From a virus, in the IMG/VR virus record IMGVR_UViG_3300025057_000004, positions 1 through 64,000 of that record: a stretch of DNA of 64,000 bases; one strand, written 5' to 3'. The notes beneath the pieces are model-generated. The model saw only the letters and a list, made by a program, of their open reading frames with translations, was not told the origin of the DNA and ran no database searches. A program made the translations under genes and the position numbers. Positions 594-21,040 of the stretch are shown piece by piece (positions within the stretch are counted from its first letter, which is position 1; the number at the start of each line of letters is the position of its first letter).

Positions 594-603
594 TATCTAT
601 GTA

Positions 604-1158: not shown

Positions 1159-1173
1159 TTAAAGTTTTAGGTT

Positions 1174-1221
1174 AAAAAAAATAGAGTGTAGGAAATCCCC
1201 GAAGGGACTTCCTTTACTCTA
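1174..1221 (-). terminator. Intrinsic terminator after the capsid gene block
   Basis: Minus strand AGAGUAAAGGAAGUCCC-UUCG-GGGAUUUCCUACACUCU followed by a U-tract. Confidence 0.8.
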
Positions 1222-1229
1222 AATTAAAT

Positions 1230-2555: not shown

Positions 2556-2626
2556 TTTTCCTATTTTTTAGGGTTATAAAAATCAAATCATTCCCTCTTA
2601 TATAAGCGGAGAGTCGCTTTTTATCA

Positions 2627-3097
2627 TTAAGCTACTACTGGAGTGGCTCCTGTACCTAAAAGGCTCGAAGTGTCAACTAATACCCATTCAGTGCCGTTCC
2701 ACACAAGTGTTACTTCATCACCTACATTGCTGAATGTAATAGTAGTTCCTTGTGCAAAATTCACTGGAGTAAGCGTTCCGTCACCTCCATAATTAACCAT
2801 TTTTACTTTCTTCAACTGTCCTGCGACCGTACCGTCAGCAAGTGTGTAAGCATTTGCACCTGTGGTAGCGATGTTACTCTTATACTGCGTAAGCGTGATA
2901 GCTCCTGGCCCTACAAGAAACTGTGGTGCGGCAGCGACAATTATACCTACTACGGAATTAGTTGGTGGTTGAGTAGGAAACAACGATAATACGTCATCTA
3001 CAACCTCGTTGAACTGCTTGCTATAGACGTAAAAACGTGCGTTGTCCTTTCCAGGTAAAAAATTAGCCTTAGTTACTTTTTTTAACCAATTACTCAT
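2627..3097 (-). CDS. Head fibre/decoration-like protein
   Basis: 156 aa, beta-rich C-terminal domain (TITFSNVGDEVTLVWNGTEWVLV) of the kind seen in phage fibre tips; structural module. Confidence 0.45.
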   Translation of the reverse strand: MSNWLKKVTKANFLPGKDNARFYVYSKQFNEVVDDVLSLFPTQPPTNSVVGIIVAAAPQFLVGPGAITLTQYKSNIATTGANAYTLADGTVAGQLKKVKMVNYGGDGTLTPVNFAQGTTITFSNVGDEVTLVWNGTEWVLVDTSSLLGTGATPVVA

Positions 3098-3831
3098 TAT
3101 TCAATTATTTTAGAATTTTCAATCATCTTAGACTGCAAACCAGGTCTATCGGTTGTTTGCATTGCAAGTTCAACAGCAAGATCTGCAATCTTTTCGTGAT
3201 GCATCTCATCAAACTCACAGAAAGTATTAGGATCTGTAAGATCAATGTTTCTTGGTGCTCTATAATAGGACACCCTATAATTATCAGGAGTTGCACCATC
3301 AAAAAGGATCACTTCGTGTCTTTTACTGTTGGTTGCACTTACCTGATTGGTTATATCATCTCTTTCTCTGTCAAACCTCCACACAAGTTCCTCGTAAGGA
3401 CGCTTGTATGGATTCTTGACGTTTGCATTATAGTAATCCTCTCTGATAGGTTTTACAGGTATTCTTGAATCTGAGATCGTATCACCACAACTGTTAGTAT
3501 AGCTGATATCAATCTCTTCTTTCAAAGTTACCCAAAAATCTTCAGGAAGATCTACAAAGTATGAGTTAGGATGATCTCCTACTGCAAAAGGTGGTGTAAG
3601 TGTAATTACATCGTGAGCTTTCAACTGCACAAGATCCTTTGAACGCTTTTCGCTCTCCTCTGCACCTTTACGTGTAGGATTGCCAAATTCGTTATACAAT
3701 GATTTAGCGAAAACCTTTTGAGCCTTATTGAAAAGCTTTACAAGGTCATCATCATCATAACCAGGAGCGTCCTGCGATGCATACGCATCATAACGCAATC
3801 TCATGTAGTCCAATATCTCAGTTACGGTCAT
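3097..3831 (-). CDS. Tail ring / head-tail adaptor protein
   Basis: 244 aa; LFNKAQ N-terminal helix and YYRAP...CEFDEMHHEKIADLAV C-terminus resemble crAss-like ring proteins; synteny. Confidence 0.65.
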   Translation of the reverse strand: MTVTEILDYMRLRYDAYASQDAPGYDDDDLVKLFNKAQKVFAKSLYNEFGNPTRKGAEESEKRSKDLVQLKAHDVITLTPPFAVGDHPNSYFVDLPEDFWVTLKEEIDISYTNSCGDTISDSRIPVKPIREDYYNANVKNPYKRPYEELVWRFDRERDDITNQVSATNSKRHEVILFDGATPDNYRVSYYRAPRNIDLTDPNTFCEFDEMHHEKIADLAVELAMQTTDRPGLQSKMIENSKIIE

Positions 3832-4733
3832 TACTTACCTTCTGCTCTTGCAATCATTGTTTCAATCAAGATACGATGATCACTATTTTGTTTGTTATTC
3901 AGGAAAGCAATAGTCGCTGTAAGATCTACACCCATGAGATCTCCTCCCATTGTGCGATATGCAGTACCATCTTTCTGAATAGCATTATATGTCAATCCTT
4001 TTGTAATAAGAACTCTCGTCATAAGGTCTTTGTCGTTGACAACCTCAATGAATCTTTTAGGATTGCTTGCAATGAAATCTCCGATCTGTCCTTGTAACCA
4101 GATAAGTGTCGAATTAGGTGACACACGCTGATTCGTAAGTAAGAACAAGATGTCTGAAAGTGCAACTTTATCTTCGCGGATCTTACCATACTCAAGGTAT
4201 GCGTCAGCAATAAGATTTGCAGTTGCAGATTTGTTATTGTCCTCGTAACCCTCATCAACGATCATATACTTATAAGATGCTTTACGCTGTGCACTGTATG
4301 CATCAGGAGCAATAAAGTCCTTATTAAGTAACAATACTTTATAAGTAATGTAATCCATAGGATCTGATAGATCAAGAGTTCGTGGATCTTTACCGAGTTT
4401 TACAGGTTTGAATGTACTTTTCCAAAAGTTATTTTCACGCTTATGTACAGAAAGATCACCCTCTTTAATAGAAAGTCCAGGATGCGACTCAAGCATATCC
4501 TGTTCTTCACTTGTAAGCGGATTAATGTACGATCCGTTCATTGCGTTCTTTGGTACTGTAAAAGTATTCATTGAGTGCTGATATAGAAATTCAGCTTCGT
4601 GACCTTTCGGTAACCATGTCTTTTTAACCACAGGTAATACTGTGACCTTTTTTCTTGGTAAGGAGAATGCAGGAGCAGTCATTTCGACCGCCCCTGTTTC
4701 TACCTCAGTTTTTGTTGTACGCTTCTTAGCCAT
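3831..4733 (-). CDS. Conserved crAss-like protein following MCP
   Basis: 300 aa; LDLSDPMDYITYKVL motif; immediately downstream of MCP. Confidence 0.6.
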   Translation of the reverse strand: MAKKRTTKTEVETGAVEMTAPAFSLPRKKVTVLPVVKKTWLPKGHEAEFLYQHSMNTFTVPKNAMNGSYINPLTSEEQDMLESHPGLSIKEGDLSVHKRENNFWKSTFKPVKLGKDPRTLDLSDPMDYITYKVLLLNKDFIAPDAYSAQRKASYKYMIVDEGYEDNNKSATANLIADAYLEYGKIREDKVALSDILFLLTNQRVSPNSTLIWLQGQIGDFIASNPKRFIEVVNDKDLMTRVLITKGLTYNAIQKDGTAYRTMGGDLMGVDLTATIAFLNNKQNSDHRILIETMIARAEGK

Positions 4734-4764
4734 TGTTATTCCCTCTTCTAAACGTTAGCAATTA

Positions 4765-6273
4765 TCAATACAAGATATTAGGAATAAGTGACTTAGTACG
4801 ACTTGGGTCGTAAACAGCAACACCTACCTGACATCCTCTGTGTACGGTATAACCGTCAGTTGAATGTGACATCTGTGACATCTTACCTGTTGGAGAGTAA
4901 GGATCTCTCAATCCTGGCTCGTAACCGTAGATGTTATCACTGTTCTTCACATAGAACTTCTGAATGTTCGGCTCTCCGTTAGTAGTACCGATATCCATGA
5001 TATCGTAACGGTAAGACTCAGCAACACCACCATTCGGGTGAAGAATCTTGTTACGCTCTCTGTCATCGTACATAGAATCTACAGAGATAGAGAAACGGAT
5101 TCCGTTAGGTCCCATATAATCTAGGAACTGACCTCCGTAACCGTATGTCATAGATACACCTGCCATCCCTCCGTTCTCAGAAGTAGAGAACATACGAGTA
5201 GCATCAAACAATGGTCTGAACAACTGTGCATAATTTTCTAATGCAAGGTGGAACTGTACAGCTCCTCGCTCACCTGTTCTTGCTACAAAGTGTCGTTGGT
5301 CAGTAGGAAGTTTTCCTTCAGAAAGATCCATCAATGTAGATAGCAACCACTCGATAGAGAAATCACTGTAGAACTCAGTACCTGAAGACTCCATCTGCTG
5401 ACGGATACCTGCACCTTGCTTTTTAACGTGACCTGACTTACCGAAGTTGTAGTATTGACCGTTTGTTCCTCTGTTAGAACGTCCGAACATCATCAATCTG
5501 TTCTTTTCAAGACGATACTGCTGATCGAATACGTAATCCTCATACTGCATCCAAGTAACGAAGTTCTCAAGCTTTCCGCTTTTTGCATCCTTTACTTTGA
5601 ATCCTGTAGCAAATGGTCGGTTAACCATGTTTCCAGGAAGTGTATGCTGCATACGGATCATTGAGAAAGTGTTTCTCATTCCAAATGGAGACTCGAAGTT
5701 GATACCACCACCTTTCTTAGAAAGAGTAGATTCAACAAGAGACCACTCACGGCTCCATCTTTTACCTGCTGCAAGTTCTTCAACTGGTACGAAAAGATCA
5801 GGATCTCCAGTGATCAATTTCACTTCGTAGATCCAGTTAGTACCATCAGCTACAGGCTCAGACTGAATCTGTAGTGAATACAATTCATTCTTATGACCAA
5901 CAATGATATGCTCATCAGTGAACCATCTTTCTGGGAAAACCAAGTAGAAAGAAGTTACGTTCTTTCCTGGCTCATCACCTACTGCAACTGGTAACCCTGT
6001 TGGAGTCAATCGTGCTTCGATCAAAGGAACGTTTTTCTTACCGCTTCCGATAAGTTCCCAAGTGAAGTCATCATCAGTATCAAGATATTTTACCTTGTAC
6101 TTAGATAGTTGAGAATCCAAGTCTACACCAAAATTGGTAGTGTGGATTCTTCGCATGATATCAGTAGCCTTCTGTGGACGACCCTGATAGATGCTATGCA
6201 AGTGATTCGCAGTTGTCAATCCTGACCAGTGCTGCGCATCATACATTTGAAATTCTGAAAATTGAAGTGCCAT
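4765..6273 (-). CDS. Major capsid protein (crAss-like)
   Basis: 502 aa; WSGLTTANHL N-terminus, GAGIRQQ, TGERGAVQF, HPNGGVAESYRYDI motifs recalled from crAss-like MCPs; order TerL-portal-scaffold-MCP. Confidence 0.9.
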   Translation of the reverse strand: MALQFSEFQMYDAQHWSGLTTANHLHSIYQGRPQKATDIMRRIHTTNFGVDLDSQLSKYKVKYLDTDDDFTWELIGSGKKNVPLIEARLTPTGLPVAVGDEPGKNVTSFYLVFPERWFTDEHIIVGHKNELYSLQIQSEPVADGTNWIYEVKLITGDPDLFVPVEELAAGKRWSREWSLVESTLSKKGGGINFESPFGMRNTFSMIRMQHTLPGNMVNRPFATGFKVKDAKSGKLENFVTWMQYEDYVFDQQYRLEKNRLMMFGRSNRGTNGQYYNFGKSGHVKKQGAGIRQQMESSGTEFYSDFSIEWLLSTLMDLSEGKLPTDQRHFVARTGERGAVQFHLALENYAQLFRPLFDATRMFSTSENGGMAGVSMTYGYGGQFLDYMGPNGIRFSISVDSMYDDRERNKILHPNGGVAESYRYDIMDIGTTNGEPNIQKFYVKNSDNIYGYEPGLRDPYSPTGKMSQMSHSTDGYTVHRGCQVGVAVYDPSRTKSLIPNILY

Positions 6274-6303
6274 GTTTTTAAATGGGTATTATTTCAAATT
6301 CTA

Positions 6304-7515
6304 TTAAATATCTGCACCGTCAAGCATGCGGAGGTAATTCTCCTTCATTTCTCTTTCGGTGATACTCTCAAGGGAAGCTCCCCTCCCTGCTTCATAGATC
6401 CCTTCAGTTGAAAGGCTCTTTTCAAGTTCCTCTACAGCACTGCTCATAGAGCGTCTTGTGAAGAGGGACAAGTCAGGTTTCTCGTCAAAGAGACCCATTT
6501 TAATAAAGTAGTGCAACCGCGTATCAAAATTGAACGGATTCTCACTACGTTTATCACTTACGGTGGTTCGCAACTGACCGTTTTCATTCCTACCCGTAGG
6601 ATTTGTCATTGCTTCTGCCATCCATTTTGCAGTTTCTTCGTTAACAGGCATACCAGGAAGAACTTCTTTCAATTCAGCAACTCTTTTAAAAAGATCCTGA
6701 CGAGAGTTCTCGTGTTGTTGTTGAGTCTGTTTTGCCTGTTCGATCTCTGCTTGTTTTCTTTGTGCTGCAATACTTTTAAGACTGCTTAATGCAAGTTTTG
6801 CATCTGCCTCATCATCACCTGAGTTGAATGATTGACGAGTACGTCTTTCAGCATCTGCCTGTGAATAACCACGGGCTATAAGATCATTATAGATAAGATT
6901 CTGTCGGATATTCTTCTTAGTATCGGCAACATCTTCATCATCCATATCAGATTCAATAAAACGATCTTCTGTGAAGTCTGCCAGCTTGGTTTCCGCATTA
7001 TGATGTTTTACAACATTCTCAAGTGGAACTCCCGCACGAATAGCATCAAGTGCCTGTCTTGTACGGTCATCAAGATCAGAGTACTCATTCTGTTTAATGG
7101 TACCTTTGATCATCTCAGCAAGCTTTGGAATATCTACGTCCTTGATGTCCTCCTCAGTTACACCAGTAAGAACACCGTCCTTTTGGAGTGCCGAGGCAAG
7201 CCTCGTCAAGAGATGAGGAGAAGAGGGAGCACTGTCAGAGGACGGCTTATCTTCAGGTAAAGTGAATGTGGTATCTCCCTCCTTTTCGGAACCACTGATC
7301 GCATTTTTCAATGTGACCTCAAATGTACCTGCATCGGAAGTAGCATCTTCTGCCTCAGTGCTTTCACCGTCTGTAGTATTCGCTGATTTTACGGCAGCGT
7401 CTGCAGCAGAGCTTGGTGCGTCTTCCTTTAATTCAATCTCAAAGGTTCCAGCATCTTCGACACCATCGATGTCAAAGCTAAAACCTAAATCGTTTTCGTT
7501 GTTTTGAAACTCCAT
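6304..7515 (-). CDS. Capsid scaffolding-like protein
   Basis: 403 aa, acidic low-complexity N-terminus, helical C-terminus; between portal and MCP. Confidence 0.65.
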   Translation of the reverse strand: MEFQNNENDLGFSFDIDGVEDAGTFEIELKEDAPSSAADAAVKSANTTDGESTEAEDATSDAGTFEVTLKNAISGSEKEGDTTFTLPEDKPSSDSAPSSPHLLTRLASALQKDGVLTGVTEEDIKDVDIPKLAEMIKGTIKQNEYSDLDDRTRQALDAIRAGVPLENVVKHHNAETKLADFTEDRFIESDMDDEDVADTKKNIRQNLIYNDLIARGYSQADAERRTRQSFNSGDDEADAKLALSSLKSIAAQRKQAEIEQAKQTQQQHENSRQDLFKRVAELKEVLPGMPVNEETAKWMAEAMTNPTGRNENGQLRTTVSDKRSENPFNFDTRLHYFIKMGLFDEKPDLSLFTRRSMSSAVEELEKSLSTEGIYEAGRGASLESITEREMKENYLRMLDGADI

Positions 7516-7525
7516 TTCTAATTTA

Positions 7526-7556
7526 CAAAATTAAGTCAATTAATATCTGATGTCAA
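7526..7556 (-). promoter_or_regulatory. Bacteroidota housekeeping-sigma promoter for scaffold/MCP operon
   Basis: Minus strand TTG(ACA)-N20-TAATTTTG, matching the -33 TTG / -7 TAnnTTTG consensus, 10 nt upstream of ATG 7515. Confidence 0.75.
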
Positions 7557-7580
7557 TACCCTCTTCTAGTTTAACAACCT

Positions 7581-9971
7581 TTACTTTATAGACTTTTCAG
7601 ATTTCATCCTTTCGATTTCCTCTTTAGATTCTCTATCAAGCTCATTTTGTTGTGCCTCGTGTTGCAATTCCTTAGAGAGTTTCTCAACATCTGCTTTTGT
7701 TTTAATGAGAGTATCTGAACTCTCGGTCATCTTAAGGTCTCTCTGAAGTTCAGCTTTTACTCTTTCAAGTTCAATCTTCCCATCATTCCTTACCTTCTCT
7801 AATTGCATTGCAATATCTGCTTTGAATTGCTCTGCCTGTTTATTTCCTTCCTGTCTCATCTGCTCAACCTGCTGCATTGCTTGTTGTTGCTGTGCTTGCA
7901 GTTCTTGCTGTTGTTGCATCTGTTGTTGTTGCTCCTGCAACTTCTGACGTTCAGCAGTTTCGATCTTACGTCTCACCGAACTGATACTCGGATCTGTCAT
8001 AATATCCATAATCTGAGAGAAGTTCACTTTATCATTCTGCAGTCCTGCCTGTGCTAACTGCATCAACATCTGTTGCATTTGAGAGTATTCAAGACTATTA
8101 TTCACAGTAAGACCGTAATCAATCTCACGTATCGCATTACCATCTATCTCAGAAAGCACCTGAGACATATCATCTGTAATGTACTGTACGTTGATCTTAC
8201 GTCCTCTGTATGCGTGTTTTGCAACTTCAAGTGCTGCCTTCAATACCGCAACCTTTATTCTATCGTGAAACTGAAAGTAAAGTTCAGTGATATGCGATGA
8301 CTGCATTACAGAACGTTGCGTGTTACCCACAAGCTCACTACTTGAGATAGCACCTTCTCTCTGACGACTTACACCTGAGATGTTACTGATCTCTTCTTTA
8401 ATAAAGTTAAGAATGTACATGTTCTGCTGCAGATAGTTACCCATATCAAAGTTCATAGGGCTTCTATTGGCATTCATGTTACCTGCAATCGTTCCAGTAG
8501 CTGCACCCTTACGTGCTTCTTTAAAAGAATCTATCGGTAACCATCCCATCTTATCTGCAAAGTAGAGTGCATCCTCTATCTCCCAACTTTCAGGAATCAT
8601 TGCAAGATCCAAGTATCCTACAACTCCCTTATGTTTAGTAAGTGTTTCCCATTGTTTGAACATCAAGAAGTCATAGTAGTAAGAGTAAGGCTTCATACGA
8701 CCCATCAATGATGTTGTCGGCTCACCTTCCTGTGTATAGTCACCACCTACATATGGACACAATGTACCTGTAGGGTTATTGATACCGTATGCCTTTACAG
8801 GAAACGGACGCATCTTAACAAAGATACTCTCACCGATACGTGTACCTTCCCACCAATCAGTTACCCAAATGTATTTCTCAATCTCCTCACCTCGCTCAAC
8901 ACGTGGTTTGTAGAACTCATCAACGAATCTGTATAGCTGCTCACCTGTCTTACGGTCATAATATTTTAGTTTACCGATCTTTCGATAAGACCTCCACACT
9001 ACACGTGTAACAAGAACAGCACCATCCTCACTGATAGGAGATAGTAACGTATCTGCTGTTGCAGTTGACGGTGTAAGATTACCATCTGCATCTTCGATCA
9101 TACTGAACGTACCTGCTACAAGATCTGGTTCTCTACCCTGTGCTACTGCTTCGTCAGCACCTGAGTTCATTGTAACACCCATTCTTTCTATTTCAGAGAC
9201 CTCATCACTTGTAAGATAATCAGAGTAGTCATCTACCACATTACCCTTTGAATGATAACCCCACTCAAGAATAATATCTGCATCCTGAATATCAGGTGAC
9301 TGACCCTTACGTATGATACGCACGTTTGCAGGGTTACACTTACGCACTCTTGGTTCACCATTTACAATGTCAAGTGCATACACCTCTCTACCTGCAACAA
9401 GACCGTCAAGGAATCCCATGTTCCACTTGTACTTCAGGTTCTCCTTCTCCATTATATGATTAAGTAGATCCGTAGCACGTTTCTCACGTATGTCCTGATA
9501 ATCATATCTTAGGTAGTTATCAAGTTCCTGTATCTTCTCAGCCATCTGATCCTGCGGTGTCTTAGACATCACAAACTCAAGAAACTGATCATTGATCATC
9601 TTTTTGATATCCTGCTCCTTTTCAGTTACAGCATCTTGATTAATGACACGTACTTTCCAATCAAACTTACGCTTCATCTCCTCACCAAGCAGTAGATTTA
9701 TCTTACTGTTTGCTACAGGGTAGTGTTGCGGTTCAAATGGAAAATCATTGTTGTTAATACCAAAAGGGTCACACATACTCAACATATCATCTGTGTTAAG
9801 TATATTATTGTAGAGATCCATGTTTGTACGGATCTCATAATAGTCATCACGGAAACTACCCGTGTAAAGTCCCATGTCAGAAGCTGCTCTTACACAACTT
9901 TCTGCCCACTTTTTATCTTTTTGCCGTTCTGTCTTTTTCTGAAACGGAAATTCTTCTTGTCCTAGTGTCAT
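7581..9971 (-). CDS. Portal protein
   Basis: 796 aa; KINLLLGEE, WWEGTRIG, ISGVSRQREG motifs; Q-rich coiled-coil C-terminus; directly after TerL. Confidence 0.9.
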   Translation of the reverse strand: MTLGQEEFPFQKKTERQKDKKWAESCVRAASDMGLYTGSFRDDYYEIRTNMDLYNNILNTDDMLSMCDPFGINNNDFPFEPQHYPVANSKINLLLGEEMKRKFDWKVRVINQDAVTEKEQDIKKMINDQFLEFVMSKTPQDQMAEKIQELDNYLRYDYQDIREKRATDLLNHIMEKENLKYKWNMGFLDGLVAGREVYALDIVNGEPRVRKCNPANVRIIRKGQSPDIQDADIILEWGYHSKGNVVDDYSDYLTSDEVSEIERMGVTMNSGADEAVAQGREPDLVAGTFSMIEDADGNLTPSTATADTLLSPISEDGAVLVTRVVWRSYRKIGKLKYYDRKTGEQLYRFVDEFYKPRVERGEEIEKYIWVTDWWEGTRIGESIFVKMRPFPVKAYGINNPTGTLCPYVGGDYTQEGEPTTSLMGRMKPYSYYYDFLMFKQWETLTKHKGVVGYLDLAMIPESWEIEDALYFADKMGWLPIDSFKEARKGAATGTIAGNMNANRSPMNFDMGNYLQQNMYILNFIKEEISNISGVSRQREGAISSSELVGNTQRSVMQSSHITELYFQFHDRIKVAVLKAALEVAKHAYRGRKINVQYITDDMSQVLSEIDGNAIREIDYGLTVNNSLEYSQMQQMLMQLAQAGLQNDKVNFSQIMDIMTDPSISSVRRKIETAERQKLQEQQQQMQQQQELQAQQQQAMQQVEQMRQEGNKQAEQFKADIAMQLEKVRNDGKIELERVKAELQRDLKMTESSDTLIKTKADVEKLSKELQHEAQQNELDRESKEEIERMKSEKSIK

Positions 9972-12307
9972 CTTCTTCTAATACGTTCTCTGATACTGAT
10001 CCTGTCTTCATCTACTTCCATTGGAATAAATCTTTCAGACATGCTCCTTCTATTTCTAAGAAAGAACGGATCAATCTGTTTTCGATTTTCGTTATTATCA
10101 ATAAAACCCTCTTCTTCTATGCCATACTTCTCAAGGTCAGCACGATAAATCAACACCATACCTAACGCAGAAATCCTATCGTAGTTTCCTACATACGGAT
10201 CATACGCTATCAGCTCTCTGAGCATTCCAGGTGATACTATCGTACTGTAGTTCCTCTCTCCCTCTTCTTTTCCGTAAGCTTGCTCCATAAGATACGACCT
10301 TATCAGACTGTTTCTCCATCCATTGACAGCCTTTGTCGTATGCGTACCTTTTGCAAAGTTACCGTAACCTGTTCTCTTTGTGATCTGCATATCACGCAAT
10401 ATCCCAGGTGTATCGCACAACATATACGTTGCATTTATTCTATCAAAATATTGGAACATACCTTTCTTGTTGTTCTCATAGTTGCAACGTGCATTGTAAT
10501 ATTTCATCAATCGGTAGCATATCTCGTAGAACTCCTCTGCCGTTCTTGGACGACCTGTATATTCTGCGACTATCCTACCTGTTAGACGGTTCATTATGAT
10601 AATACTCCCTAATGATGGTCCGACCGACATATCATCATCATAAGGGTCAGCTCCTGCTATATAGACATTTGGCTGTATATGACCATCTATCTCAACAGGA
10701 TGCTCAAATATCTCTACACACGAGGCAAGATCCTTGACATCCATAACAGGAAACTGTCGTATCGGGTAATTATCGCTCAGTTTCCAGTTTACCTCACCAT
10801 CTTGAAAGTAAAGCTTGACCTTCCATGTAGCATCTGTGTATTTCTTAGGATTTGTCTCCACCTCCGCAAGATGTATACGCATATCCTCTACATTGAACAG
10901 ATGACCCTCCTTTTTCATCATCGCCTCTTGCGGTGTGATGGAACGGTCAGCTTTTTCCTGTATCAAAGCGTTAGGATCGTCTGTACTGGTCGCAATAACT
11001 GCACGTGCATCAAAAACCTCTATCAATGCCTTTACAATATCAGAGTTACCATCTACATCGTAGCAACCTTCACGGTTCATATACTCACCGCAGTAGTAAC
11101 CGCACACTGTACCCTGTGGCATATTACGGTCAAACACGTTCGGTAACGCATAAATATTATATGCATCAGGTTTAGTGAACAATTCACGCATACCTGCAAA
11201 GTCAGCACCCTCTGTACCACCTGTACCCCATACTACAATGGTACCGAATGTCATTTTACCCTGCTCAACCGAAGGTCGTGCAATCGCATATGTCTTTTTC
11301 AGGTGTGGAAACTTTCCTGCCTCCTCAAACAAAAGCAGTTTACCCCTCTTTCCCCTTGCACGTTCTGGCTGACCTTTGGTAGATACACCGATTATCTCGG
11401 TCTTTATACCTTTTTCCGTCTTTGTTCTCGGATCTCTGTAGGATGCCCTCTTGTGGTCGTTCCTATCTGCATAATCACGTGACTTTCTCCACGGTGTATG
11501 GTTATCTATGAAGTTCAGTGTGTCCCATGCTTTAGATAAGATACCATCATCGTACAGATACTCACCTTCCGATGCTATCGCAAAAGACTTTGAACGTTTA
11601 AAATGGTAATAATTACGTGTACCCATAGAAGAACCCTTGAACGAGTAGCCTCTACCCCTTGTTTTCAAGTTTCCACAGTGCATACCACGCTGTTCTGCCT
11701 GTTCTACATAATGATACCATAGATAATCACTGTCCCATACTCTCGGAAAGTCCTCTACACGGTCAGCCTTTATGTTGCCTACCTGCTTTTCTAACTCCTC
11801 TGTAGATTGTGGTACCTCCTGTGTCATCAGTATCGGACAGTAATTCAGATACCAATAATAATAGCCTGGTATCCACTCACCATCAGAAGGTCGTATCAGA
11901 CCCTCTCTACATCTACGCTGTTCCTCTCTCCAAAACTTCATATAACGTGAAGACGGAAATCTATTGGGAACCAAGTCGGTATACTTACCGTACTTCTTAA
12001 AATACAATGCTCTCTCCCTGAAGAAGTCCATATCTTCAAGGATATGTGGAGATGTAATATCAACCTCTATCTTACCATCGTCATCCTTTGGCAGATCCTT
12101 TGCGTAAGGTCTGTTACTTGACAACATATTGTAAACAAAAGGTATCTCATCAATAGCCTGAATGATATCTGCACGTAACTCCTCATCTTCCAACGAGTTT
12201 ATACGCACACTCACATCGAAACGTAAGCTGTCAAGTAATGACCTCTCTTCGTGTGTATCAGTCTGGGTTGAGTTCTTCATCTTCAAATTCAGCTTTCTCC
12301 CTTCCAC
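9968..12307 (-). CDS. terL: Terminase large subunit (true start may be slightly downstream of 12307)
   Basis: Walker A-like LKTRGRGYS, Walker B LLFEEAG, coupling motif GTGG, nuclease motifs GADPYDDD and YDRISA. Confidence 0.92.
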   Translation of the reverse strand: MEGRKLNLKMKNSTQTDTHEERSLLDSLRFDVSVRINSLEDEELRADIIQAIDEIPFVYNMLSSNRPYAKDLPKDDDGKIEVDITSPHILEDMDFFRERALYFKKYGKYTDLVPNRFPSSRYMKFWREEQRRCREGLIRPSDGEWIPGYYYWYLNYCPILMTQEVPQSTEELEKQVGNIKADRVEDFPRVWDSDYLWYHYVEQAEQRGMHCGNLKTRGRGYSFKGSSMGTRNYYHFKRSKSFAIASEGEYLYDDGILSKAWDTLNFIDNHTPWRKSRDYADRNDHKRASYRDPRTKTEKGIKTEIIGVSTKGQPERARGKRGKLLLFEEAGKFPHLKKTYAIARPSVEQGKMTFGTIVVWGTGGTEGADFAGMRELFTKPDAYNIYALPNVFDRNMPQGTVCGYYCGEYMNREGCYDVDGNSDIVKALIEVFDARAVIATSTDDPNALIQEKADRSITPQEAMMKKEGHLFNVEDMRIHLAEVETNPKKYTDATWKVKLYFQDGEVNWKLSDNYPIRQFPVMDVKDLASCVEIFEHPVEIDGHIQPNVYIAGADPYDDDMSVGPSLGSIIIMNRLTGRIVAEYTGRPRTAEEFYEICYRLMKYYNARCNYENNKKGMFQYFDRINATYMLCDTPGILRDMQITKRTGYGNFAKGTHTTKAVNGWRNSLIRSYLMEQAYGKEEGERNYSTIVSPGMLRELIAYDPYVGNYDRISALGMVLIYRADLEKYGIEEEGFIDNNENRKQIDPFFLRNRRSMSERFIPMEVDEDRISIRERIRRR

Positions 12308-14646: not shown

Positions 14647-15066
14647 TTATTCAAACCTTTCAGAACCCATACTTATATCACCTTTATCTTGATTCCCCAT
14701 ATAAATATCATAACACTTCTCGTGAAACTCCAGACTAAGTACAACCTCTACATCTACATCCTTATCCCCATGATAAGTATACCTACCTTCAAGCATAACT
14801 TCCATAAGTCCTTCTTTGGGAGTAAATACAAAAGAAGAATACGTAATTAGCACAAGTTCCTGCTCATCCTCAACTATAAGTTCTCTTGTAAACTTATATC
14901 TTGGATATTCAAACTCGTGCTCCATTCTATCTTCAATGCCTTCCTCTCCCATTTTTTTTTGCATTTTGAAATTCACCTCGTAAAAACACTCGCTTTTGCG
15001 AGTCAAAAACTCAGACCTTATACCTACATCGAAGTTTTTGAGTATATCAATATTTACCTGAACCAA
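14647..15066 (-). CDS. Hypothetical protein (start uncertain)
   Basis: 139 aa acidic ORF with a non-ATG upstream start; internal Met starts possible. Confidence 0.5.
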   Translation of the reverse strand: MVQVNIDILKNFDVGIRSEFLTRKSECFYEVNFKMQKKMGEEGIEDRMEHEFEYPRYKFTRELIVEDEQELVLITYSSFVFTPKEGLMEVMLEGRYTYHGDKDVDVEVVLSLEFHEKCYDIYMGNQDKGDISMGSERFE

Positions 15067-15107
15067 CAGGAGTGGTTACCTGAAGACACAACTAAGAGGT
15101 ATATAAC

Positions 15108-15168
15108 GTCCCATTTGATCAACCTTACGGGGTTGCGCAGTCTTAGATACTGCATTCTCAAACGAGAC
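15108..15168 (-). ncRNA. Structured three-way-junction leader or small RNA
   Basis: 11-bp outer stem 15108-15118/15158-15168 with G-U pairs only on the minus strand, enclosing GCAGU/ACUGC and CAACC/GGUUG hairpins; begins just after promoter 15173-15203. Confidence 0.5.
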
Positions 15169-15172
15169 AATA

Positions 15173-15203
15173 CAAAACTAATACATCAAAGAGCGTTTGT
15201 CAA
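15173..15203 (-). promoter_or_regulatory. Bacteroidota housekeeping-sigma promoter
   Basis: Minus strand TTG(ACA)-N20-TAGTTTTG. Confidence 0.75.
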
Positions 15204-15334
15204 GTCTTTTCTAAAATTTTTTTTTAAAATTTTTTTGAGTAGCTGCGTGTGATGACCTCCATAACAAAAAGCCACTACTAAATTTTAGCAGCGGGAATAG
15301 TCCCGTTGCCGAACTTTTCACAATTATCAAAGCT

Positions 15335-15622
15335 ATGAGTAAAGAGCTAAAGTTTACAGATGAAGTCCTAACTGTCGCACAATTCAAAGCGAGTCAAGGC
15401 ACCGAGAGTATCGCGTTTGTTCGCAGCCCGAAAACCGACAAGTTGTTCGCGGCTGATGACGCAGGTAACACAATTGCAGCTGTTTCAGAGGCTGCAGTTG
15501 AAGCAGAAGAATTGCTCGTAACTCTCTGCGAAAGAGAGAACGCAGAGGGCAAGACTGAGCAGTTCTACCTGATTCACGCGAAAGGTAAGGGCGGTACGCA
15601 GAACGTTGAGAGAACCATCTAA
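15335..15622 (+). CDS. First early-region protein, hypothetical
   Basis: 95 aa; A-rich leader; GC-richer than its flanks; strong hairpins on both sides. Confidence 0.75.
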   Translation: MSKELKFTDEVLTVAQFKASQGTESIAFVRSPKTDKLFAADDAGNTIAAVSEAAVEAEELLVTLCERENAEGKTEQFYLIHAKGKGGTQNVERTI

Positions 15623-15673
15623 GGTTCCCTCAGCGGCTTCTGCCGTTTGAGCCAGTGCATCTATATGATGCAA

Positions 15674-15750
15674 ACACACAGACCGAAAGGAGTTGTTACG
15701 GTAAATGTGTGTCAGTGTTAGAAGAGCAGCAACTCCAAGCTGCTTTTCTA
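15674..15750 (+). ncRNA. Two-hairpin kissing-loop RNA candidate
   Basis: ACACACA/UGUGUGU plus ACCG/CGGU hairpin with loop GGAGUU, complementary to loop AACUCC of the 12-bp hairpin 15719-15750. Confidence 0.55.
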
Positions 15751-16024
15751 CCCTTTTGGGTATACAATAGTTTCCTACTATGTATCTAAATACATAGACT
15801 TTTAGCACCGTGTGAACAGGTGTATCGTTGTTCACAATATAACTATGCTTCCGACTATGAAGACATTTGTTATCGTCAACGGAGTAGTAACTCTTGTTGA
15901 GTACATCATTAACACTAACGCATAGTTAGTGTGATGTATTGAATCAGATTCGGAGTAAGTGAACACCAAATCACTTTCTTGGCAACAGAAATCTTAGGTA
16001 TTTGGAGAGAACCTTAATCTCTCC

Positions 16025-16086
16025 TGTATTAATGCAACTGAACATAGTTCAACGGTCACAAGTCCGTGTAAATGCAGAGTGGTACA
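16025..16086 (+). ncRNA. Twister self-cleaving ribozyme, type P1
   Basis: P1 UGUAU/GUACA; UAA cleavage loop 16030-32; P2 UGCA/UGCA; P3 UGAAC/GUUCA; P4 ACGG/CCGU with loop UCACAAGU; GAGUG strand; both pseudoknots pair (CAC:GUG and AC:GU). Confidence 0.9.
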
Positions 16087-16274
16087 AAAAGGTTATGAGT
16101 GTTAGACCTGTCTAACTTCCGTAGGGTCGCTACCTAAAAAACTCTTATTTGGTCGTTGTCAATTTGCTGTTAGACTGGTCATCTTATACCAACAGTGTCG
16201 TCAACCGTGATAACGGTACAGCAAGGGTAAGCAGTCCTTGCACTTTTTATTAACCTTTTAATCTATAATCTACT

Positions 16275-16628
16275 ATGCAAATAGAAGAGTTATTGGATAT
16301 AAAGGCAGAGTTGACCAATTCATTGCGTGATATCAATACAAAGATAAAGCAATATGAAGACGGTTATATCTACATTGTAGTAACCAGAGAATATGGTTCA
16401 ATCTGGTTTGATTCTTTCAAGAACAAATATGCATTGGAAGATTACATTGCAGACTACTATGGAGATAACGGAATCACTGAAGTGTATACCGATTATGATG
16501 CTGATATTGAGCATTGTGATTCAAGGTTCTACACTTTAGAAGATTTCACTGAATACTTAAAGGATATGAAATATTATCCTAACAGTGTTCAGAAGATTCT
16601 GTCTGAATATCCACAATTGAACAGCTGA
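16275..16628 (+). CDS. Hypothetical early protein
   Basis: 117 aa, ATG with A/T-rich leader. Confidence 0.7.
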   Translation: MQIEELLDIKAELTNSLRDINTKIKQYEDGYIYIVVTREYGSIWFDSFKNKYALEDYIADYYGDNGITEVYTDYDADIEHCDSRFYTLEDFTEYLKDMKYYPNSVQKILSEYPQLNS

Positions 16629-16838
16629 AAAGCGGGTTCGGAGCAGTTATGCTTGGCAACAGAAAATAACATTTTAATTTCTAACCGACTAATACAATAG
16701 CTTTGAAACACAAAGACAAACAATCATACTTTGATCTGTTGGTGTTGTTTGCACCAGCAATATTCTTTTTCATTTATCAACTCATTAAATGATGATACTT
16801 CTGTTCAATACTATTTTGGATGGTAAAATACTTTAGTC

Positions 16839-16873
16839 GGTCGCATTCCTTTTCGGAGGGTGTGACCTTCTTT
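16839..16873 (+). terminator. Strong hairpin/terminator-like element
   Basis: GGUCGCAUUCC...GGGUGUGACC stem followed by UUCUUU. Confidence 0.55.
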
Positions 16874-16955
16874 AAATCCACCAAATCAGGGTGGCTTTAT
16901 TAACCCTCGCAGATATAAACAAGCCATCACTGCGATAATATAAATTAAAGAGCCA

Positions 16956-17265
16956 GGTCGCTGGGATAGAGAAGACCATATAAATAACTATCCATTTTTA
17001 ACACGTCATAAGGTCGGTAAAATTCCGAATACGTTCGTGCAGAGCCGTGGGGAGCGGAATGTAAAAACCCCAAACAAGTGTAAGCCAGAGTTATGTTTGC
17101 TCTCAGACAGGAGTCCATACATCTAGGTGCCCTGATGGACTTAGCAAGGAGAATTTGAGGGATAATGTAAAAATGGACAGGCAACGATCCGTTTATGTAA
17201 CTCTGGCAAACACTTACTTTACAATAATTCTCAAGTAATAATGTATGGTCAGGCCTGAATCGACC
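16956..17265 (+). ncRNA. Multi-stem structured RNA candidate (~310 nt)
   Basis: Nested long-range stems 16956-60/17261-65, 16974-82/17242-50, 17076-81/17210-15, 17084-95/17196-207, 17111-18/17135-42, 17171-77/17188-94; G-U wobbles on plus strand. Confidence 0.65.
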
Positions 17266-17348
17266 ATTGCAATACAATGACTGTTTGGCGTGTCATTGGC
17301 ATTATCACTTGTCAATATATATTTTATAAACCCTTTAATTCATACATT

Positions 17349-17654
17349 ATGAATGCGCTTAAAGAAATAGAACCGTTTATTAATGAGATCCAAGCTATTA
17401 CTGTACAGCACTCTGATTTCAGTTGGGATGAAGATAATCTTAAGAGTTATACTCTTTATCCTGATTATACTCCTGAAGAATTTGAAGATTTCAAAGACTT
17501 TATGAACTTTGAATATGATAACGGTTACGGAGCACAGGAATTATACGGTACTATCTGGTTTAAAGACGGTACTTGGTGTACTCGCGGAGAGTATGACGGT
17601 AGTGAGTGGTGGGAACATCACGAAAGACCTGATATTATTACAAGGGAGCGTTGA
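17349..17654 (+). CDS. Hypothetical early protein (likely start MNALKEI at 17349 rather than 17277)
   Basis: YDNGYGAQELYGTIWFKDGTWCTRGEYDGSEWW segment; leader aaaccctttaattcatacattATG resembles other early-gene leaders. Confidence 0.7.
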   Translation: MNALKEIEPFINEIQAITVQHSDFSWDEDNLKSYTLYPDYTPEEFEDFKDFMNFEYDNGYGAQELYGTIWFKDGTWCTRGEYDGSEWWEHHERPDIITRER

Positions 17655-17728
17655 TCGCTCTCTTGTTTCTACATAAGGTTAAGCAATAGACCTATCAACT
17701 TATTGCACAATTTATACAATACTATACA

Positions 17729-18055
17729 ATGAAATTTACTTACACATTTCCAACACGATTCTGGGACGCAGCAGCAAATTGTCTTAGTGAATCATTAAGA
17801 GCACTATCATTTAGAATAAGTCACAACACTGAAGGCAAAGTAAACCTTGATGCATCAGTGTTTACAATACTTAAAGATGATTTTCAAGGTGTTCAGGTCA
17901 ACTTAGCCTTTGTTGTTAAAGATTCATTGGCTCCTAAAGAGATCAAAGCTATTCTTGAAGAGATAATCTATCTTGAAAAGAATCTTGAAAAAGATGTTGA
18001 AAGGTCTGATAAAAAAGCAAATCAATTACACGAAAAATATTTTAAAGTAGCATAA
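17729..18055 (+). CDS. Hypothetical protein
   Basis: 108 aa ORF in early operon. Confidence 0.6.
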   Translation: MKFTYTFPTRFWDAAANCLSESLRALSFRISHNTEGKVNLDASVFTILKDDFQGVQVNLAFVVKDSLAPKEIKAILEEIIYLEKNLEKDVERSDKKANQLHEKYFKVA

Positions 18056-18056
18056 G

Positions 18057-18260
18057 ATGGAAACAATAGCTAAAAGATTCTTACTGTTCATCGGTATTAG
18101 TTCATCACCTATGTTAATAGTCACTGCGATGTGGCTATTAACTGTAGGTTACTTTAATTGGCTTGATGCAATACATTCAGAAGTATATGGTGTATTCACA
18201 TCATTCTGTGTGTTCTTTGCGTTCTTTGTGTCATTAGTTATACCTTCAAACGAGCTGTAA
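18057..18260 (+). CDS. Small two-TM membrane protein
   Basis: Two hydrophobic segments in 67 aa. Confidence 0.6.
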   Translation: METIAKRFLLFIGISSSPMLIVTAMWLLTVGYFNWLDAIHSEVYGVFTSFCVFFAFFVSLVIPSNEL

Positions 18261-18261
18261 T

Positions 18262-18501
18262 ATGATGGCAAGACCTAATTTCAACAGAGGAGATAATGAG
18301 AGCTACATCAGCTCTCTTATTTCCCAACATGGTTACAAAGACATAGGATGGTCAAACAGTGGTGCTGATTTCAGTAAACCACTTGACCCTATTATAGGTG
18401 CTGAAGAAATAGACTGTTCGTTGTACAGTTTCAGATGCACCAATATGGTATACGTCAATCATCTTACACGTGAGATACTTCACGTTGACATGAGTGATTA
18501 A
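18262..18501 (+). CDS. Hypothetical protein
   Basis: 79 aa, tightly packed with neighbours. Confidence 0.6.
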   Translation: MMARPNFNRGDNESYISSLISQHGYKDIGWSNSGADFSKPLDPIIGAEEIDCSLYSFRCTNMVYVNHLTREILHVDMSD

Positions 18502-18504
18502 TTG

Positions 18505-19009
18505 TAAGAGGGGTCAAATGACTTCTCTTATTTCAAACCTTTTAATTACAATAAAATGAAATACTTAATTCTTAGTTTATTACTGCCATTGGTGTCTTGC
18601 TCAAAAGATACAGAACCAGGTTTATTCATCATTGATGTTTATGAGCAAGACAACATCAATACTATGTCATTTGTATTGGACATAGAAACAGAACCGTTTA
18701 CATACACAGAAGATTTCTTGCTTGAAGTTGTTGTGATAGCAAAGCCTATCATTGATGTATCTTCAGAAGAAGCATGGCTTGAGTCAGTAAGCAGACCTAC
18801 CTATTATAAAGCAATAGGTATCACTTGTCAGGATCTGATGATGTGTAACGGTAAACTTGTGCACGGGTTAGGTTATAGATTTGATGAGAACTTTGATTCA
18901 GATCTGTACTATATTACCTTTGATGTGTTGACAGAACAAGATTATATAGAGAGGGTCGATTGACCTTCTCTTATTTTAAAATCTTTAATTACAATAAAAT
19001 GAAATACTT
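18505..19009 (+). repeat. Duplicated hairpin plus translation-start unit (18505-18566 and 18948-19009)
   Basis: Related GGGTC...GAC hairpins, each followed by the identical 26-mer TTTAATTACAATAAAATGAAATACTT at 18541 and 18984. Confidence 0.85.
18556..18963 (+). CDS. Lipoprotein
   Basis: MKYLILSLLLPLVSC signal peptide II with lipobox-like Cys. Confidence 0.7.
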   Translation: MKYLILSLLLPLVSCSKDTEPGLFIIDVYEQDNINTMSFVLDIETEPFTYTEDFLLEVVVIAKPIIDVSSEEAWLESVSRPTYYKAIGITCQDLMMCNGKLVHGLGYRFDENFDSDLYYITFDVLTEQDYIERVD

Positions 19010-19304
19010 GATTATCATATTGACATCTGTCATAATATTGACAGGATGTTCAAAAACAATGGAATATGAAGATGTCGAATTTAAATTCGTATATGATGTT
19101 CCTCAAGATGACCGTGTGAATCCAGGTGATACGGTCATAATCAGCGTTACTACTTTATCAACTTCTTATGTTCCTCGCAGGAAAATAGTTGATATTTACA
19201 GAGGTCAAGCTTTACCTGAACCTGTAAAAGACAGTGTTGTTCATGAAGACGATTTTGTAACGCATATGTATACGTTTTATACACTTGGAAAAATATTAGA
19301 ATAG
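18999..19304 (+). CDS. Lipoprotein (true start 18999)
   Basis: MKYLIIILTSVIILTGC lipobox; same leader as 18556. Confidence 0.7.
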   Translation: MKYLIIILTSVIILTGCSKTMEYEDVEFKFVYDVPQDDRVNPGDTVIISVTTLSTSYVPRRKIVDIYRGQALPEPVKDSVVHEDDFVTHMYTFYTLGKILE

Positions 19305-19418
19305 AGTAAAACAACAAGTTGTATAGATAGTAACAATCAGATGCTGCAGCATCCAACACACACAGGAGAGTGTGTACTATTATGAAAAGACAAAGAAAGA
19401 AAGCAATTTGTTGAATTA

Positions 19419-19860
19419 AAGGTCAAACCTACGACCTTGTGATTGAGAACGTTAGTACTTTGGAAAGCTCAGTACCAATCACTAAAAGAAGATAAACGAA
19501 ATAGGTGGATTAGTTTACCGAATAAGTTTATCCAGTGTACCCTTGAAATGCCATTTGAGAGGGATGAAACAAAGATGCATTAAGTTGCGGGATACGTATC
19601 ACTGAGGAGTTGGCAGCTAGACCATTGAAAGATGGTGCTAATCATAGACAGTTGTGGTATACACTCTTGACAACGATCAACTGTCTCAGACGCATGTAAA
19701 ATAGCGGTCATGCGTTGGTAACCCTCCGTGATGAGATAGACCCTCATCTCACTAAACAGTAAGAACCTGGAAAGTCAAGCTGGTTCTGAATTACATAGGT
19801 GTACAACTATGTAAGCGGTCATACAAGGCAGGCTATTGCCTGTATGATTTTTAATACACT
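19419..19860 (+). ncRNA. Large ornate structured RNA candidate (~440 nt)
   Basis: Within a ~620-nt gap lacking a credible ORF; more than 10 stems, e.g. 19439-45/19476-82, 19491-97/19526-32, 19646-54/19678-86, 19690-96/19709-15, 19791-98/19807-14, 19819-25/19841-47; UGAAA/UGAGA T-loop-like loops. Confidence 0.7.
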
Positions 19861-19929
19861 AAACCAAAACAAATAAGAGGAAGCTGAAAATCTTGAATAG
19901 AGTAGGCATACATCATCTTATAAAAAATT

Positions 19930-20205
19930 ATGAAAGATGAAAGTAACATTTTACAACACGTTCCAGTTACTACCGAATGTAGTATGGATACAAGAAACGA
20001 AGGAAGTAATTATTATGTTACCGTTCTATGGAACTTTCTGTTTAGAACGTTAACATTTGTAATGTCAATAGGGTTAACAGCACAGTTTTATTACAATCTT
20101 ATGTGTGATCAACCTGCCAGTAAAGCATTTGCATACATGATGATGTTTGTATGTGCGGTGATTTTACTATCAGATCTTCTTGTCTATGATGAAGAAACTG
20201 ATTAG
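19930..20205 (+). CDS. Small two-TM membrane protein
   Basis: Two hydrophobic helices in 91 aa. Confidence 0.55.
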   Translation: MKDESNILQHVPVTTECSMDTRNEGSNYYVTVLWNFLFRTLTFVMSIGLTAQFYYNLMCDQPASKAFAYMMMFVCAVILLSDLLVYDEETD

Positions 20206-21040
20206 AAAGAGTATGAAGATACGTCCATCTGGAAGAAGCAGTGATTTCATATCACCTTCTTTCGGGTACGGATGTCTCCTCAACTGTAGCTACTGCTATA
20301 TGAAACGTCACAAGCCTGAAGGACTTGATGTTGCAACCAATACGAATGACATACTTACAGAGATCAACAATCATGCATTCTTTGCAACGGTAGATAAGCC
20401 GAATCAAACAGATCCTGAGTATGTAACATACGATATTGCTTGCAATGAAGACTTTGCATTACATGCCAAGCATCACGAGTGGGAGAAGATATTCACATTC
20501 TTCAGAGACCACCCTGTAGCAAAGGCAACACTTGCAACTAAGATAGTTCCTGATAGATTTCTTACTTTTGACCCTAAAGGTAAGGTACGTATACGATTCA
20601 GTCTTATGCCGCAGAAGATAAGTTCAATACTTGAACCTGAAACTGCAAGCATAGAAGATAGATTACGTGCTGTAGATAGATTCATAGCTGCAGGTTATGA
20701 TATACATTTGAACTTCTCACCTGTATTATACTATGATGGTTGGGAGGATGATTATGTAGAACTATTTCATCTTGTAGATGAGCTTGTTGACAACAAAGAG
20801 TGTGTAAAAGCGGAGGTTATCTTCCTCACACACAACGAGAACAAGCATATATACAATATGAATCACGGTCTACCAGGAGAAGACCTTCTATGGACACCTG
20901 ATGTTCAGGAAGCAAAGACCTCTGAATACGGAGGTAAGAACATACGATACAAAGCAGATCTAAAATCTGATATGATTGCTGTGTTTAAAGATTTACACGG
21001 ATGTATTATACCGTGGAATCAGATACGTTACATCTTTTAA
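20180..21040 (+). CDS. splB: Spore photoproduct lyase-family radical SAM enzyme
   Basis: GYGCLLNCSYCYM CxxxCxxC(Y) motif; YDIACNED resembles the Bacillus SplB H-donor Cys141 region; RIRFSLMP, IEDRLRAV, LNFSPV motifs. Confidence 0.8.
   Translation: MSMMKKLIRKSMKIRPSGRSSDFISPSFGYGCLLNCSYCYMKRHKPEGLDVATNTNDILTEINNHAFFATVDKPNQTDPEYVTYDIACNEDFALHAKHHEWEKIFTFFRDHPVAKATLATKIVPDRFLTFDPKGKVRIRFSLMPQKISSILEPETASIEDRLRAVDRFIAAGYDIHLNFSPVLYYDGWEDDYVELFHLVDELVDNKECVKAEVIFLTHNENKHIYNMNHGLPGEDLLWTPDVQEAKTSEYGGKNIRYKADLKSDMIAVFKDLHGCIIPWNQIRYIF

Follow-up and report, generated by a model that had tools for sequence, protein, structure and literature searches.

CrAss-like phages are among the most abundant viruses, and their early programme is poorly understood. 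Long non-coding RNAs were described in one of them, the cultured marine Cellulophaga phage phi14:2. According to passages of the report by Drobysheva et al. (bioRxiv 10.1101/2020.03.07.982082), rightward transcription of two long intergenic regions close to its left end is seen already at the first time point, and the RNAs, which exceed most genes in abundance and remain plentiful, were named long non-coding RNAs with no function assigned. The region analysed here lies in a 64,000-nucleotide (nt) stretch (the window; positions 1 to 64,000 of the 88.9-kb IMG/VR virus record IMGVR_UViG_3300025057_000004), in which three gaps poor in open reading frames (ORFs), at 15623-16274, 16629-17348 and 19305-19929, are set among small protein genes. 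An original prediction, made from the letters of the window, had described a dense cluster of structured non-coding RNAs, one of them a ribozyme, interleaved with those genes. The reading preferred here, and held to be on the whole probable, is that the region forms the hypervariable head of a rightward transcription unit, in which short cassettes recombine at conserved junction elements. The cassettes would carry small protein genes, RNA-processing or untranslated-region (UTR) elements, and accessory RNA cargo, and the unit would be that of the replication side, transcribed early by analogy.

Cassette polymorphism among relatives of the window

The region is placed at the head of the replication-side block, divergent from the head and packaging genes, by block positions and gene content: a minus-strand block from 1 to about 15 kb encodes the major head protein, portal and terminase, and a plus-strand block from about 15.3 kb encodes an SPL-like radical-SAM protein, DNA polymerase, helicase and ribonucleotide reductase. 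This order is the layout of crAss-like phages. Close relatives were collected by a Joint Genome Institute (JGI) scan with the family of a 117-amino-acid (aa) protein of the region (loci L082-L086) and by a scan for the twister ribozyme described below (L129 and L139), and they consist of blocks at 75-94% identity broken by swapped or missing segments. The 95-aa gene at the head of the region is swapped in L083, L086 and L139. The segment at 16088-16242 is present in L082 and absent from L084, L086 and L129; in L083 different sequence takes its place, as does what appears to be a short ORF in L085, and past 16.7 kb the sequence differs in every relative. Joints in RNA-library contigs of relatives connect 15948 to 16637, 16847 to 16996, 18504 or 18546 to 19303, and 19374 to 19876; since one X21 contig joins 19374 straight to 19876, the approximately 500 nt of cargo in gap 3 are optional.

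Gap 2 contains a junction hairpin, J1, whose arms are altered on both sides in L084 and L086. Behind J1 the contents differ from genome to genome, with about 430 nt in the window, at least 640 nt in L085, about 110 nt in L086, and in L084 a permuted transfer-messenger RNA (tmRNA; RF04321, L084 4486-4746) that scores 58.1 bits at a gathering score of 47 and has a tag ending ..RLAA before its stop; no Rfam match at E<=0.05 was found in the L085 stretch. Gap 2 also holds a decayed gene, because no AUG follows the pre-start element UAACCGACUAAUACAAUAG and only C-terminal codons of an L084-type gene are left. The remnant proper spans 16731-16826, blastn aligns 16789-16871 with L084 4388-4474 at 78%, and in L083-L086 real small genes have the UAACCGACUAAUACAAUAG element ahead of their AUG. 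Cassette exchange is also indicated by the 49-nt units ahead of the lipoprotein-like genes of 135 and 101 aa (18522-18570 and 18965-19013), which are 90% alike and contain a hairpin tail, the pre-start element and the first codons MKYL. The elements of the three gaps are as follows.

15674-15712, plus strand: nested hairpin H1, downstream of the 95-aa gene in its 3' UTR (outer stem ACACACA/UGUGUGU, inner stem ACCG/CGGU; alignment A4, 4 sequences).
15722-15747, plus strand: terminator-like hairpin H2, its 3' arm running into a U-rich tail (9 pairs, every lettered cell paired).
15811-15836, plus strand: hairpin H5, upstream of the micro-gene (a C-G to U-A double change in L129).
15857-15925, plus strand: micro-gene p22, 22 codons and a stop (13 copies examined).
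15892-15948, plus strand: long hairpin H6 of 22 pairs, with the last p22 codons as its 5' arm and the stop codon in its loop (alignment A5, 8 sequences).
15949-15991, plus strand: conserved-loop motif, copy 1, UUCGGAG and a hairpin with loop UCUUGGCAACAG and stem UUUC/GAAA (stems of relatives UAACGA/UCGUUA or AGAC/GUCU).
16026-16085, plus strand: type-P1 twister ribozyme (RF03160), predicted to cut between U16030 and A16031 (56.7 bits, E 4.3e-11).
16086-16248, plus strand: hairpin-rich segment after the twister, ending in a terminator-like hairpin at 16221-16241 and a U run (terminator scan; present or absent among relatives).
16246-16274, plus strand: repeated pre-start element (UUAUUAACCUUUUAAU, about 12 nt, AUG), with more copies at 17323, 18531 and 18974, common to relatives too.
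16637-16671, plus strand: conserved-loop motif, copy 2, UUCGGAG and a hairpin with loop GCUUGGCAACAG and stem GUUAU/AUAAC, 8 nt past the stop of the 117-aa gene.
16682-16826, plus strand: decayed gene cassette, the pre-start UAACCGACUAAUACAAUAG without AUG and then the last codons (..NDDTSVQYYFGW and stop) of a gene that is intact in L084.
16831-16872, plus strand: junction hairpin J1 (CUUUAGUCGG with GGUCGCAUUCC..GGGUGUGACC), found in L084, L085, L086 and L108.
16895-17320, plus strand: gap-2 cargo of about 430 nt, which includes a 310-nt nested RNA (16956-17265) of the original prediction and is not found in L083-L086.
19305-19415, plus strand: gap-3 leader of about 70-110 nt, common to relatives in RNA-library contigs (X21-X24 contigs cover 19303 to 19374-19415).
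19416-19860, plus strand: gap-3 cargo, ending in a terminator-like hairpin at 19826-19843 and a U run (z score -4.10, no better than coding sequence).
19874-19908, plus strand: DUF805b RNA motif (RF02914), 47.4 bits at a gathering score of 35.6, covering model positions 1-35 of 35.

The small protein genes of the array encode 95, 22, 117, 101, 108, 67, 79, 135, 101 and 91 aa. The 117-aa and 95-aa proteins had no relatives in IMG/VR, and the alignment of the 79-aa protein recovered only the L129 contig. Among 576 IMG/VR stretches that encode relatives of the SPL-like protein, the best 80 were compared at the DNA level and had no DNA in common with 15.0-20.1 kb. Rfam searches of the relatives, run at the gathering threshold on 11 loci and at E<=0.01 on 7, yielded transfer RNA (tRNA) and tmRNA only. 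DNA sequencing runs with the stretch come from marine, seawater, sediment, estuary or freshwater metagenomes, and contigs of four RNA libraries from two studies partially cover all three gaps; stretches without such cover, such as 16372-16605, are uninformative. The depth of the RNA contigs is higher at 15.3-15.9, 16.84-17.07, 18.0-18.7 and 19.2-19.65 kb than at 20-21.5 kb, a difference that cannot rank genes and from which nothing is drawn.

The surroundings show further features of the record. GC skew switches sign at the head of the replication-side block, and giant minus-strand ORFs of 2093 aa and 4161 aa lie at 45-64 kb. A block of the divergent intergenic region (15057-15185) is very conserved, and in L086 a minus-strand frame of it has 85% aa identity, against 64-69% in the other frames; a regulatory element may lie there, or a minus-strand ORF of 38 aa with a TTG start (15054-15170). 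The 95-aa protein (15335-15622) has a single homologue cluster among 5.8 billion clusters (P0012, 125 aa, 97% identity, on a 507-nt NCBI contig), and diverged versions of it are found in L082 (45%) and L084 (34%).

The twister ribozyme, the micro-gene p22 and their neighbours

The twister ribozyme, according to passages of a review (PMC6154101), is built of P1, a U-A cut site, P2, an optional P3, P4 and two pseudoknots. Like known type-P1 ribozymes, the twister of the window has P1, the cut site, P2, the optional P3, P4 and both pseudoknots; the U-A cut site lies between P1 and P2, and all cells of P1, P2 and P4 are paired in 8 relatives. Unlike the RF03160 consensus, pseudoknot T1 is AC:GU and not GC:GC, T2 is CAC:GUG and not CCC:GGG, and the score is below the gathering score. 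Both sides of T1 and T2 thus differ from the model with complementarity kept; the pairs, whose positions are an assignment made here, are formed in 8/8 sequences and are invariant among them. A real twister-P1 is present (E 4e-11, both pseudoknots kept through paired changes), and the ribozyme of the original prediction is borne out. The match recurs in all six relatives searched, more weakly in L084 (41.5 bits), and its loop variant was found in 34 IMG/VR contigs. These contigs, the window and four relatives gave a set of 39 for P1 and P2, from which 38 were parsed and 26 were distinct: all 8 pairs of P1 and P2 are kept in 12, 7 in 10 and 6 in 1, and the other 3 do not fit the P1-type layout. 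P1 and P2 covary across the 23 fitting sequences of the 26 distinct ones, and P2 occurs in at least 7 sequence versions.

The micro-gene p22 lies upstream of the twister, within the conserved block of gap 1 (from about 15785). It is exactly 22 codons long in 13/13 copies, which include six distant relatives with 55-59% aa identity and almost no likeness in DNA, and its variable columns fall 11/4/15 on codon positions 1/2/3. From this pattern p22 is taken here to be a real conserved micro-gene. Its stop codon is enclosed by the 22-pair hairpin H6, in which, in alignment A5, L129 shows U-A to C-G and A-U to C-G as double changes and two sequences show A-U to G-U; in distant relatives a different hairpin, judged by eye, spans the p22 stop. 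Over eight close relatives, 98.5% of the cells of H6 and the twister are paired and 4 pairs are altered on both sides, a result equalled by 0/500 shuffles. The hairpins upstream of p22 gave 3 pairs altered on both sides in H1, H2 and H5 together, which was equalled by 24/500 shuffles. In alignment A4, one pair of H1 changes from C-G to U-A (two sequences) and one from C-G to U-G, and in H2 a double change turns C-G into U-A in L084 and two further pairs are altered on one side; at the H5 site, L086 and L139 have another hairpin instead. In the distant relatives L010, L015 and similar loci, p22 is followed by 350-850 nt without credible ORFs, seemingly hairpin-rich and common to these loci, and no Rfam match at E<=0.01 was found in these stretches.

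The order in gap 1 is H6, UUCGGAG, a hairpin with the loop (G/U)CUUGGCAACAG, and the twister. Gap 1 is the best-defined unit of the array: the 95-aa gene contributes its 3' UTR hairpins and its terminator, and p22 with its stop in the 22-pair hairpin, the GCUUGGCAACAG-loop hairpin and the twister come after them. Self-cleavage of the twister is predicted at U16030/A16031; in vivo, a cut there would leave a p22 RNA that ends in a 2',3'-cyclic phosphate shortly after the loop hairpin, and would release a downstream RNA with a 5'-OH. In the window this downstream RNA would be a hairpin-rich product of about 215 nt with a terminator end, and in L084 and L086 it would be the mRNA of the 117-aa gene.

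Folding of the gaps, their cargo and the conserved-loop hairpin

The three ORF-poor gaps stood up to translation in three codes, with zero plus-strand ORFs of at least 60 aa. Hidden recoded genes were rejected, since reading TAG as Q or TGA as W still gives no ORF of that length. The largest ORF of the gaps, counting both strands, has 110 aa and a TTG start and lies on the minus strand at 16945-17277; it was likewise rejected as a gene, since a set of 1.84 billion representative proteins contained no relative of it at E<=0.001. All three gaps fold better than dinucleotide shuffles, with z scores of -5.58, -3.63 and -3.64 for gaps 1, 2 and 3. Thirteen 650-nt windows of same-strand coding sequence from this genome have a mean z of -3.44 (range -0.5 to -7.4), and 5/13 are as low as -3.63 and 2/13 as low as -5.58. 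In 200-nt windows the mean z is -2.38 for the gaps (n=17), -2.23 for the neighbouring small genes (n=18) and -2.01 for coding sequence at 20.2-24 kb (n=38). Folding energy is thus uninformative specifically on the gaps, because coding sequence here also beats shuffles. The statement that nearly all of the gap sequence folds into stems holds against shuffles and fails against coding sequence of the same genome; likewise, the plus-strand bias ascribed to G-U pairs is no trait of the gaps, since plus and minus strands give -2.38 and -1.42 in the gaps and -2.01 and -1.10 in coding sequence. A 200-nt window within the 117-aa coding gene (16401-16600) has a z of -6.07 (200 shuffles). A caution for such scans follows, that in this genome better-than-shuffle folding cannot separate non-coding RNA from coding sequence.

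In gap 2, the second loop hairpin, the decayed gene and J1 are followed by about 430 nt of cargo in the slot of the permuted tmRNA of L084. Its 310-nt nested RNA has a z of -2.24, and 4/100 shuffles fold equally well. Gap 3 consists of a common leader, about 450 nt of optional cargo with its own terminator, and a DUF805b leader of the next gene. No Rfam match was found for either cargo stretch; searched singly (E<=1), gaps 2 and 3 gave nothing besides DUF805b, ARAGORN found 0 tRNA or tmRNA genes over the window, and a 17-mer scan of IMG/VR for gap 3 gave two places only, with no wider likeness. The DUF805b motif is like RF02914 in being full-length, with a short hairpin and the conserved tail AAnAGAGUAGGCA, directly upstream of a gene; 21 nt separate it from the AUG of the downstream gene, which encodes a membrane-like protein of 91 aa. 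The family name leads one to expect a DUF805-domain gene downstream of the motif. Unlike the family name, no DUF805 domain was detected here, since the 91-aa protein has no Pfam match at E<=0.1. The DUF805b pattern was found in 33 IMG/VR contigs, many of them of 83-105 kb, the size of crAss-like genomes; its stem varies, and in 14/33 a small, varied ORF starts within 35 nt downstream.

The repeated loop motif of the original prediction is present, as the string UUGGCAACAGAA occurs twice, at 15979 and 16653, and the motif itself has two copies in the whole record, at 15977 and 16651. A second repeat candidate, AGCGGUCAU, which also occurs twice, was rejected as near chance level (0.4 expected in 442 nt by an estimate made here). 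The gapped pattern of UUCGGAG, 6-17 nt and GCUUGGCAACAG was found in 44 IMG/VR contigs. A stem of at least 5 pairs closes the loop in 28/43 distinct exact phage instances, with 21 different arm pairs, against a mean of 4.4 and a maximum of 10 when the downstream sides were dealt to other instances; AA follows the loop core in 32/43, and a GAAUNAGN-type 5' flank is found in 25/43. Most instances lie 0-33 nt past the stop of an ORF of 45-396 codons. In L246 the motif begins 3 nt past the tag stop codon of a permuted tmRNA found by ARAGORN (tag ..EDYALAA before the stop), and this neighbourhood of motif and tag frame explains the weak match of the Rfam alpha_tmRNA 3' end to copy 2 (17 and 9.9 bits, gathering score 50). 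The motif has no matching family of its own in Rfam, and the motif string was found in the literature only in unrelated primers. In a far larger bacterial collection the pattern occurs at 52 places, about the chance number by an estimate made here, and the stem is formed in only 3/53 distinct matches (control 3.1). Five bacterial matches have the 5' flank, all in Patescibacteria-type genomes. UUCGGAG/GCUUGGCAACAG with the GAAUNAGN flank stands after ORFs in the Patescibacteria-type contigs L166, L171, L178 and L192 (two in L192), from candidate-phyla-radiation genomes. A hairpin with a fixed loop thus recurs past the stop codons of dozens of unrelated phage contigs and past a tmRNA tag frame.

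Rival readings and described phage RNAs

Several observations weigh against the reading of a hypervariable head built of exchanged cassettes. The twister scores below the Rfam gathering score of 67.2, with the missing bits at positions of the pseudoknots, whose letters the model treats as fixed, and the L084 twister has its conserved GUAAA stretch disrupted. Compensatory changes are few, most pairs of H6 and the twister being invariant, and the structures were drawn from the same sequences in which the changes were counted. The loop motif was rejected as a general 3' end of transcripts, since a U-rich tail follows only 7/28 hairpins. The RNA runs are contigs that carry no strand, ends, level or cleavage; they extend over the neighbouring late and replication genes as well, and DNA may be present in them. 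L002, the closest IMG/VR relative by the SPL protein (78%), has densely packed genes and no large gap, so that large gene-free stretches are not fixed in the group. Both cargo stretches are without homologue in IMG/VR or five JGI loci, so that their covariation is not measurable, and their folding energy is ordinary for the genome.

The view that the gaps are discrete structured RNAs, released by ribozyme processing right after injection and acting against host defence or RNA-binding proteins as decoys or inhibitors, is unlikely. It draws on the real twister and on ORF-free cargo bounded by terminator-like hairpins, but there is one ribozyme only, adjoining a micro-gene and, in relatives, an mRNA, and a ribozyme-processed arsenal therefore rests on a single cut site. 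The slot shared with the tmRNA of L084 and, in the passages cited for phi14:2, early non-coding RNAs abundant throughout infection also speak for it, and the rapid turnover of cargo in close relatives would fit an arms race; against this, the cargo shows no covariation, no excess of folding over coding sequence and no Rfam family, and no element is tied to any defence system, so that the role as decoy or inhibitor is pure conjecture. It is conceivable, and on present evidence rather doubtful, that both large cargo stretches have no function and are decayed genes and scars of recombination, transcribed only passively, in an accessory region of rapid turnover. Part of gap 2 is demonstrably a decayed gene, and the cargo is present or absent in close relatives, folds like coding sequence and has no homologues found. 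Nevertheless, gap 3 and 16.9-17.3 kb match no reading frame in 85 related loci, the 110-aa minus-strand ORF is without relative, about 0.9 kb of junk is rarely retained in phage genomes, the terminator-like ends are retained, and L084 has a working RNA gene in the corresponding slot. As a whole, the observation of a dense cluster of structured RNAs and small genes is partly confirmed, in that several real RNA elements exist, and partly not, in that the gaps are partly coding (p22 and the gene remnant) and their largest parts are cargo of unproven nature; the first interpretation is partly supported.

That p22 is no ordinary micro-gene, and that its frame, the stop in a hairpin and the UUCGGAG/GGCAACAG hairpin together go back to the coding piece of a two-piece (permuted) tmRNA or imitate it, is highly improbable. 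The stop codon of p22 lies in a hairpin, as the stops of tmRNA tags do, and the L246 motif 3 nt past a tag stop and the weak alpha_tmRNA 3'-end match to copy 2 point the same way. However, the window holds no tRNA-like domain, acceptor piece or tmRNA match, p22 has an AUG start, coding-type substitutions and an ..NTNA end unlike usual tags, the motif lies mostly past ordinary protein genes, and the permuted tmRNA of L084 is without it. Beside the preferred reading of recombining cassettes, a bolder proposal is offered as speculation, that marine crAss-like phages may keep an "RNA bay" at the head of their early genes. There, a conserved unit of p22, stop-in-hairpin and GCUUGGCAACAG-hairpin, with twister trimming just behind it in this subgroup, would be followed by swappable RNA slots for permuted tmRNA, tRNA or RNAs of 430-450 nt; the loop hairpin would be an uncatalogued motif, widespread in phages and common to the end of the permuted-tmRNA coding piece, marking RNAs for a common factor of the host or of the phage. 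The locus gives testable pieces of an unexplained early region, in particular a ribozyme whose cut site is defined and which adjoins a conserved micro-gene, and it shows slots in which relatives exchange RNA genes.

Compared with described phage RNAs, the locus is like the surroundings of RAGATH, ROOL and GOLLD in having hairpin-rich ORF-free sequence adjoining a twister in a phage. The comparison with these families drawn in the original prediction found no support, as no Rfam match to them was obtained at E<=5 (14.5-20.5 kb) or E<=1 (gaps 2 and 3 alone). The cargo of the window differs from phage tmRNA and tRNA cargo (RF04321) in having no tmRNA or tRNA features, and resembles it in position, since RNA genes occupy the corresponding slots of relatives, behind J1 in L084 and upstream of SPL in L021. 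In the more distant relatives L021, L006, L008 and L010, the SPL-like gene directly follows a tmRNA with tRNA-Leu (in L021, 6136-6603) or a single tRNA.

The phi14:2 record (NC_021806) is free of ORFs at 2905-4601. Within this stretch of the published early RNAs a tmRNA was found at 4031-4502 (ARAGORN tag GSSVQKLAMVA before the stop; Rfam 46.0 bits against 47, E 4.7e-16); no paper was found that names a phi14:2 non-coding RNA as tmRNA, and the available passages of the phi14:2 paper are likewise silent. The window differs from phi14:2 in that it holds no tmRNA, in that blastn and tblastn of 14900-20300 against phi14:2 bases 1-12000 gave nothing significant, and in that neither a twister nor a DUF805b match (E<=0.1) was obtained in bases 1-6200 of phi14:2; early transcription is a feature of phi14:2 and is predicted for the window by analogy. 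In conclusion, the likeness to phi14:2 is one of arrangement, in that the rightward block of a marine crAss-like phage opens, upstream of the DNA polymerase, with small genes interspersed with long sequences that lack ORFs.

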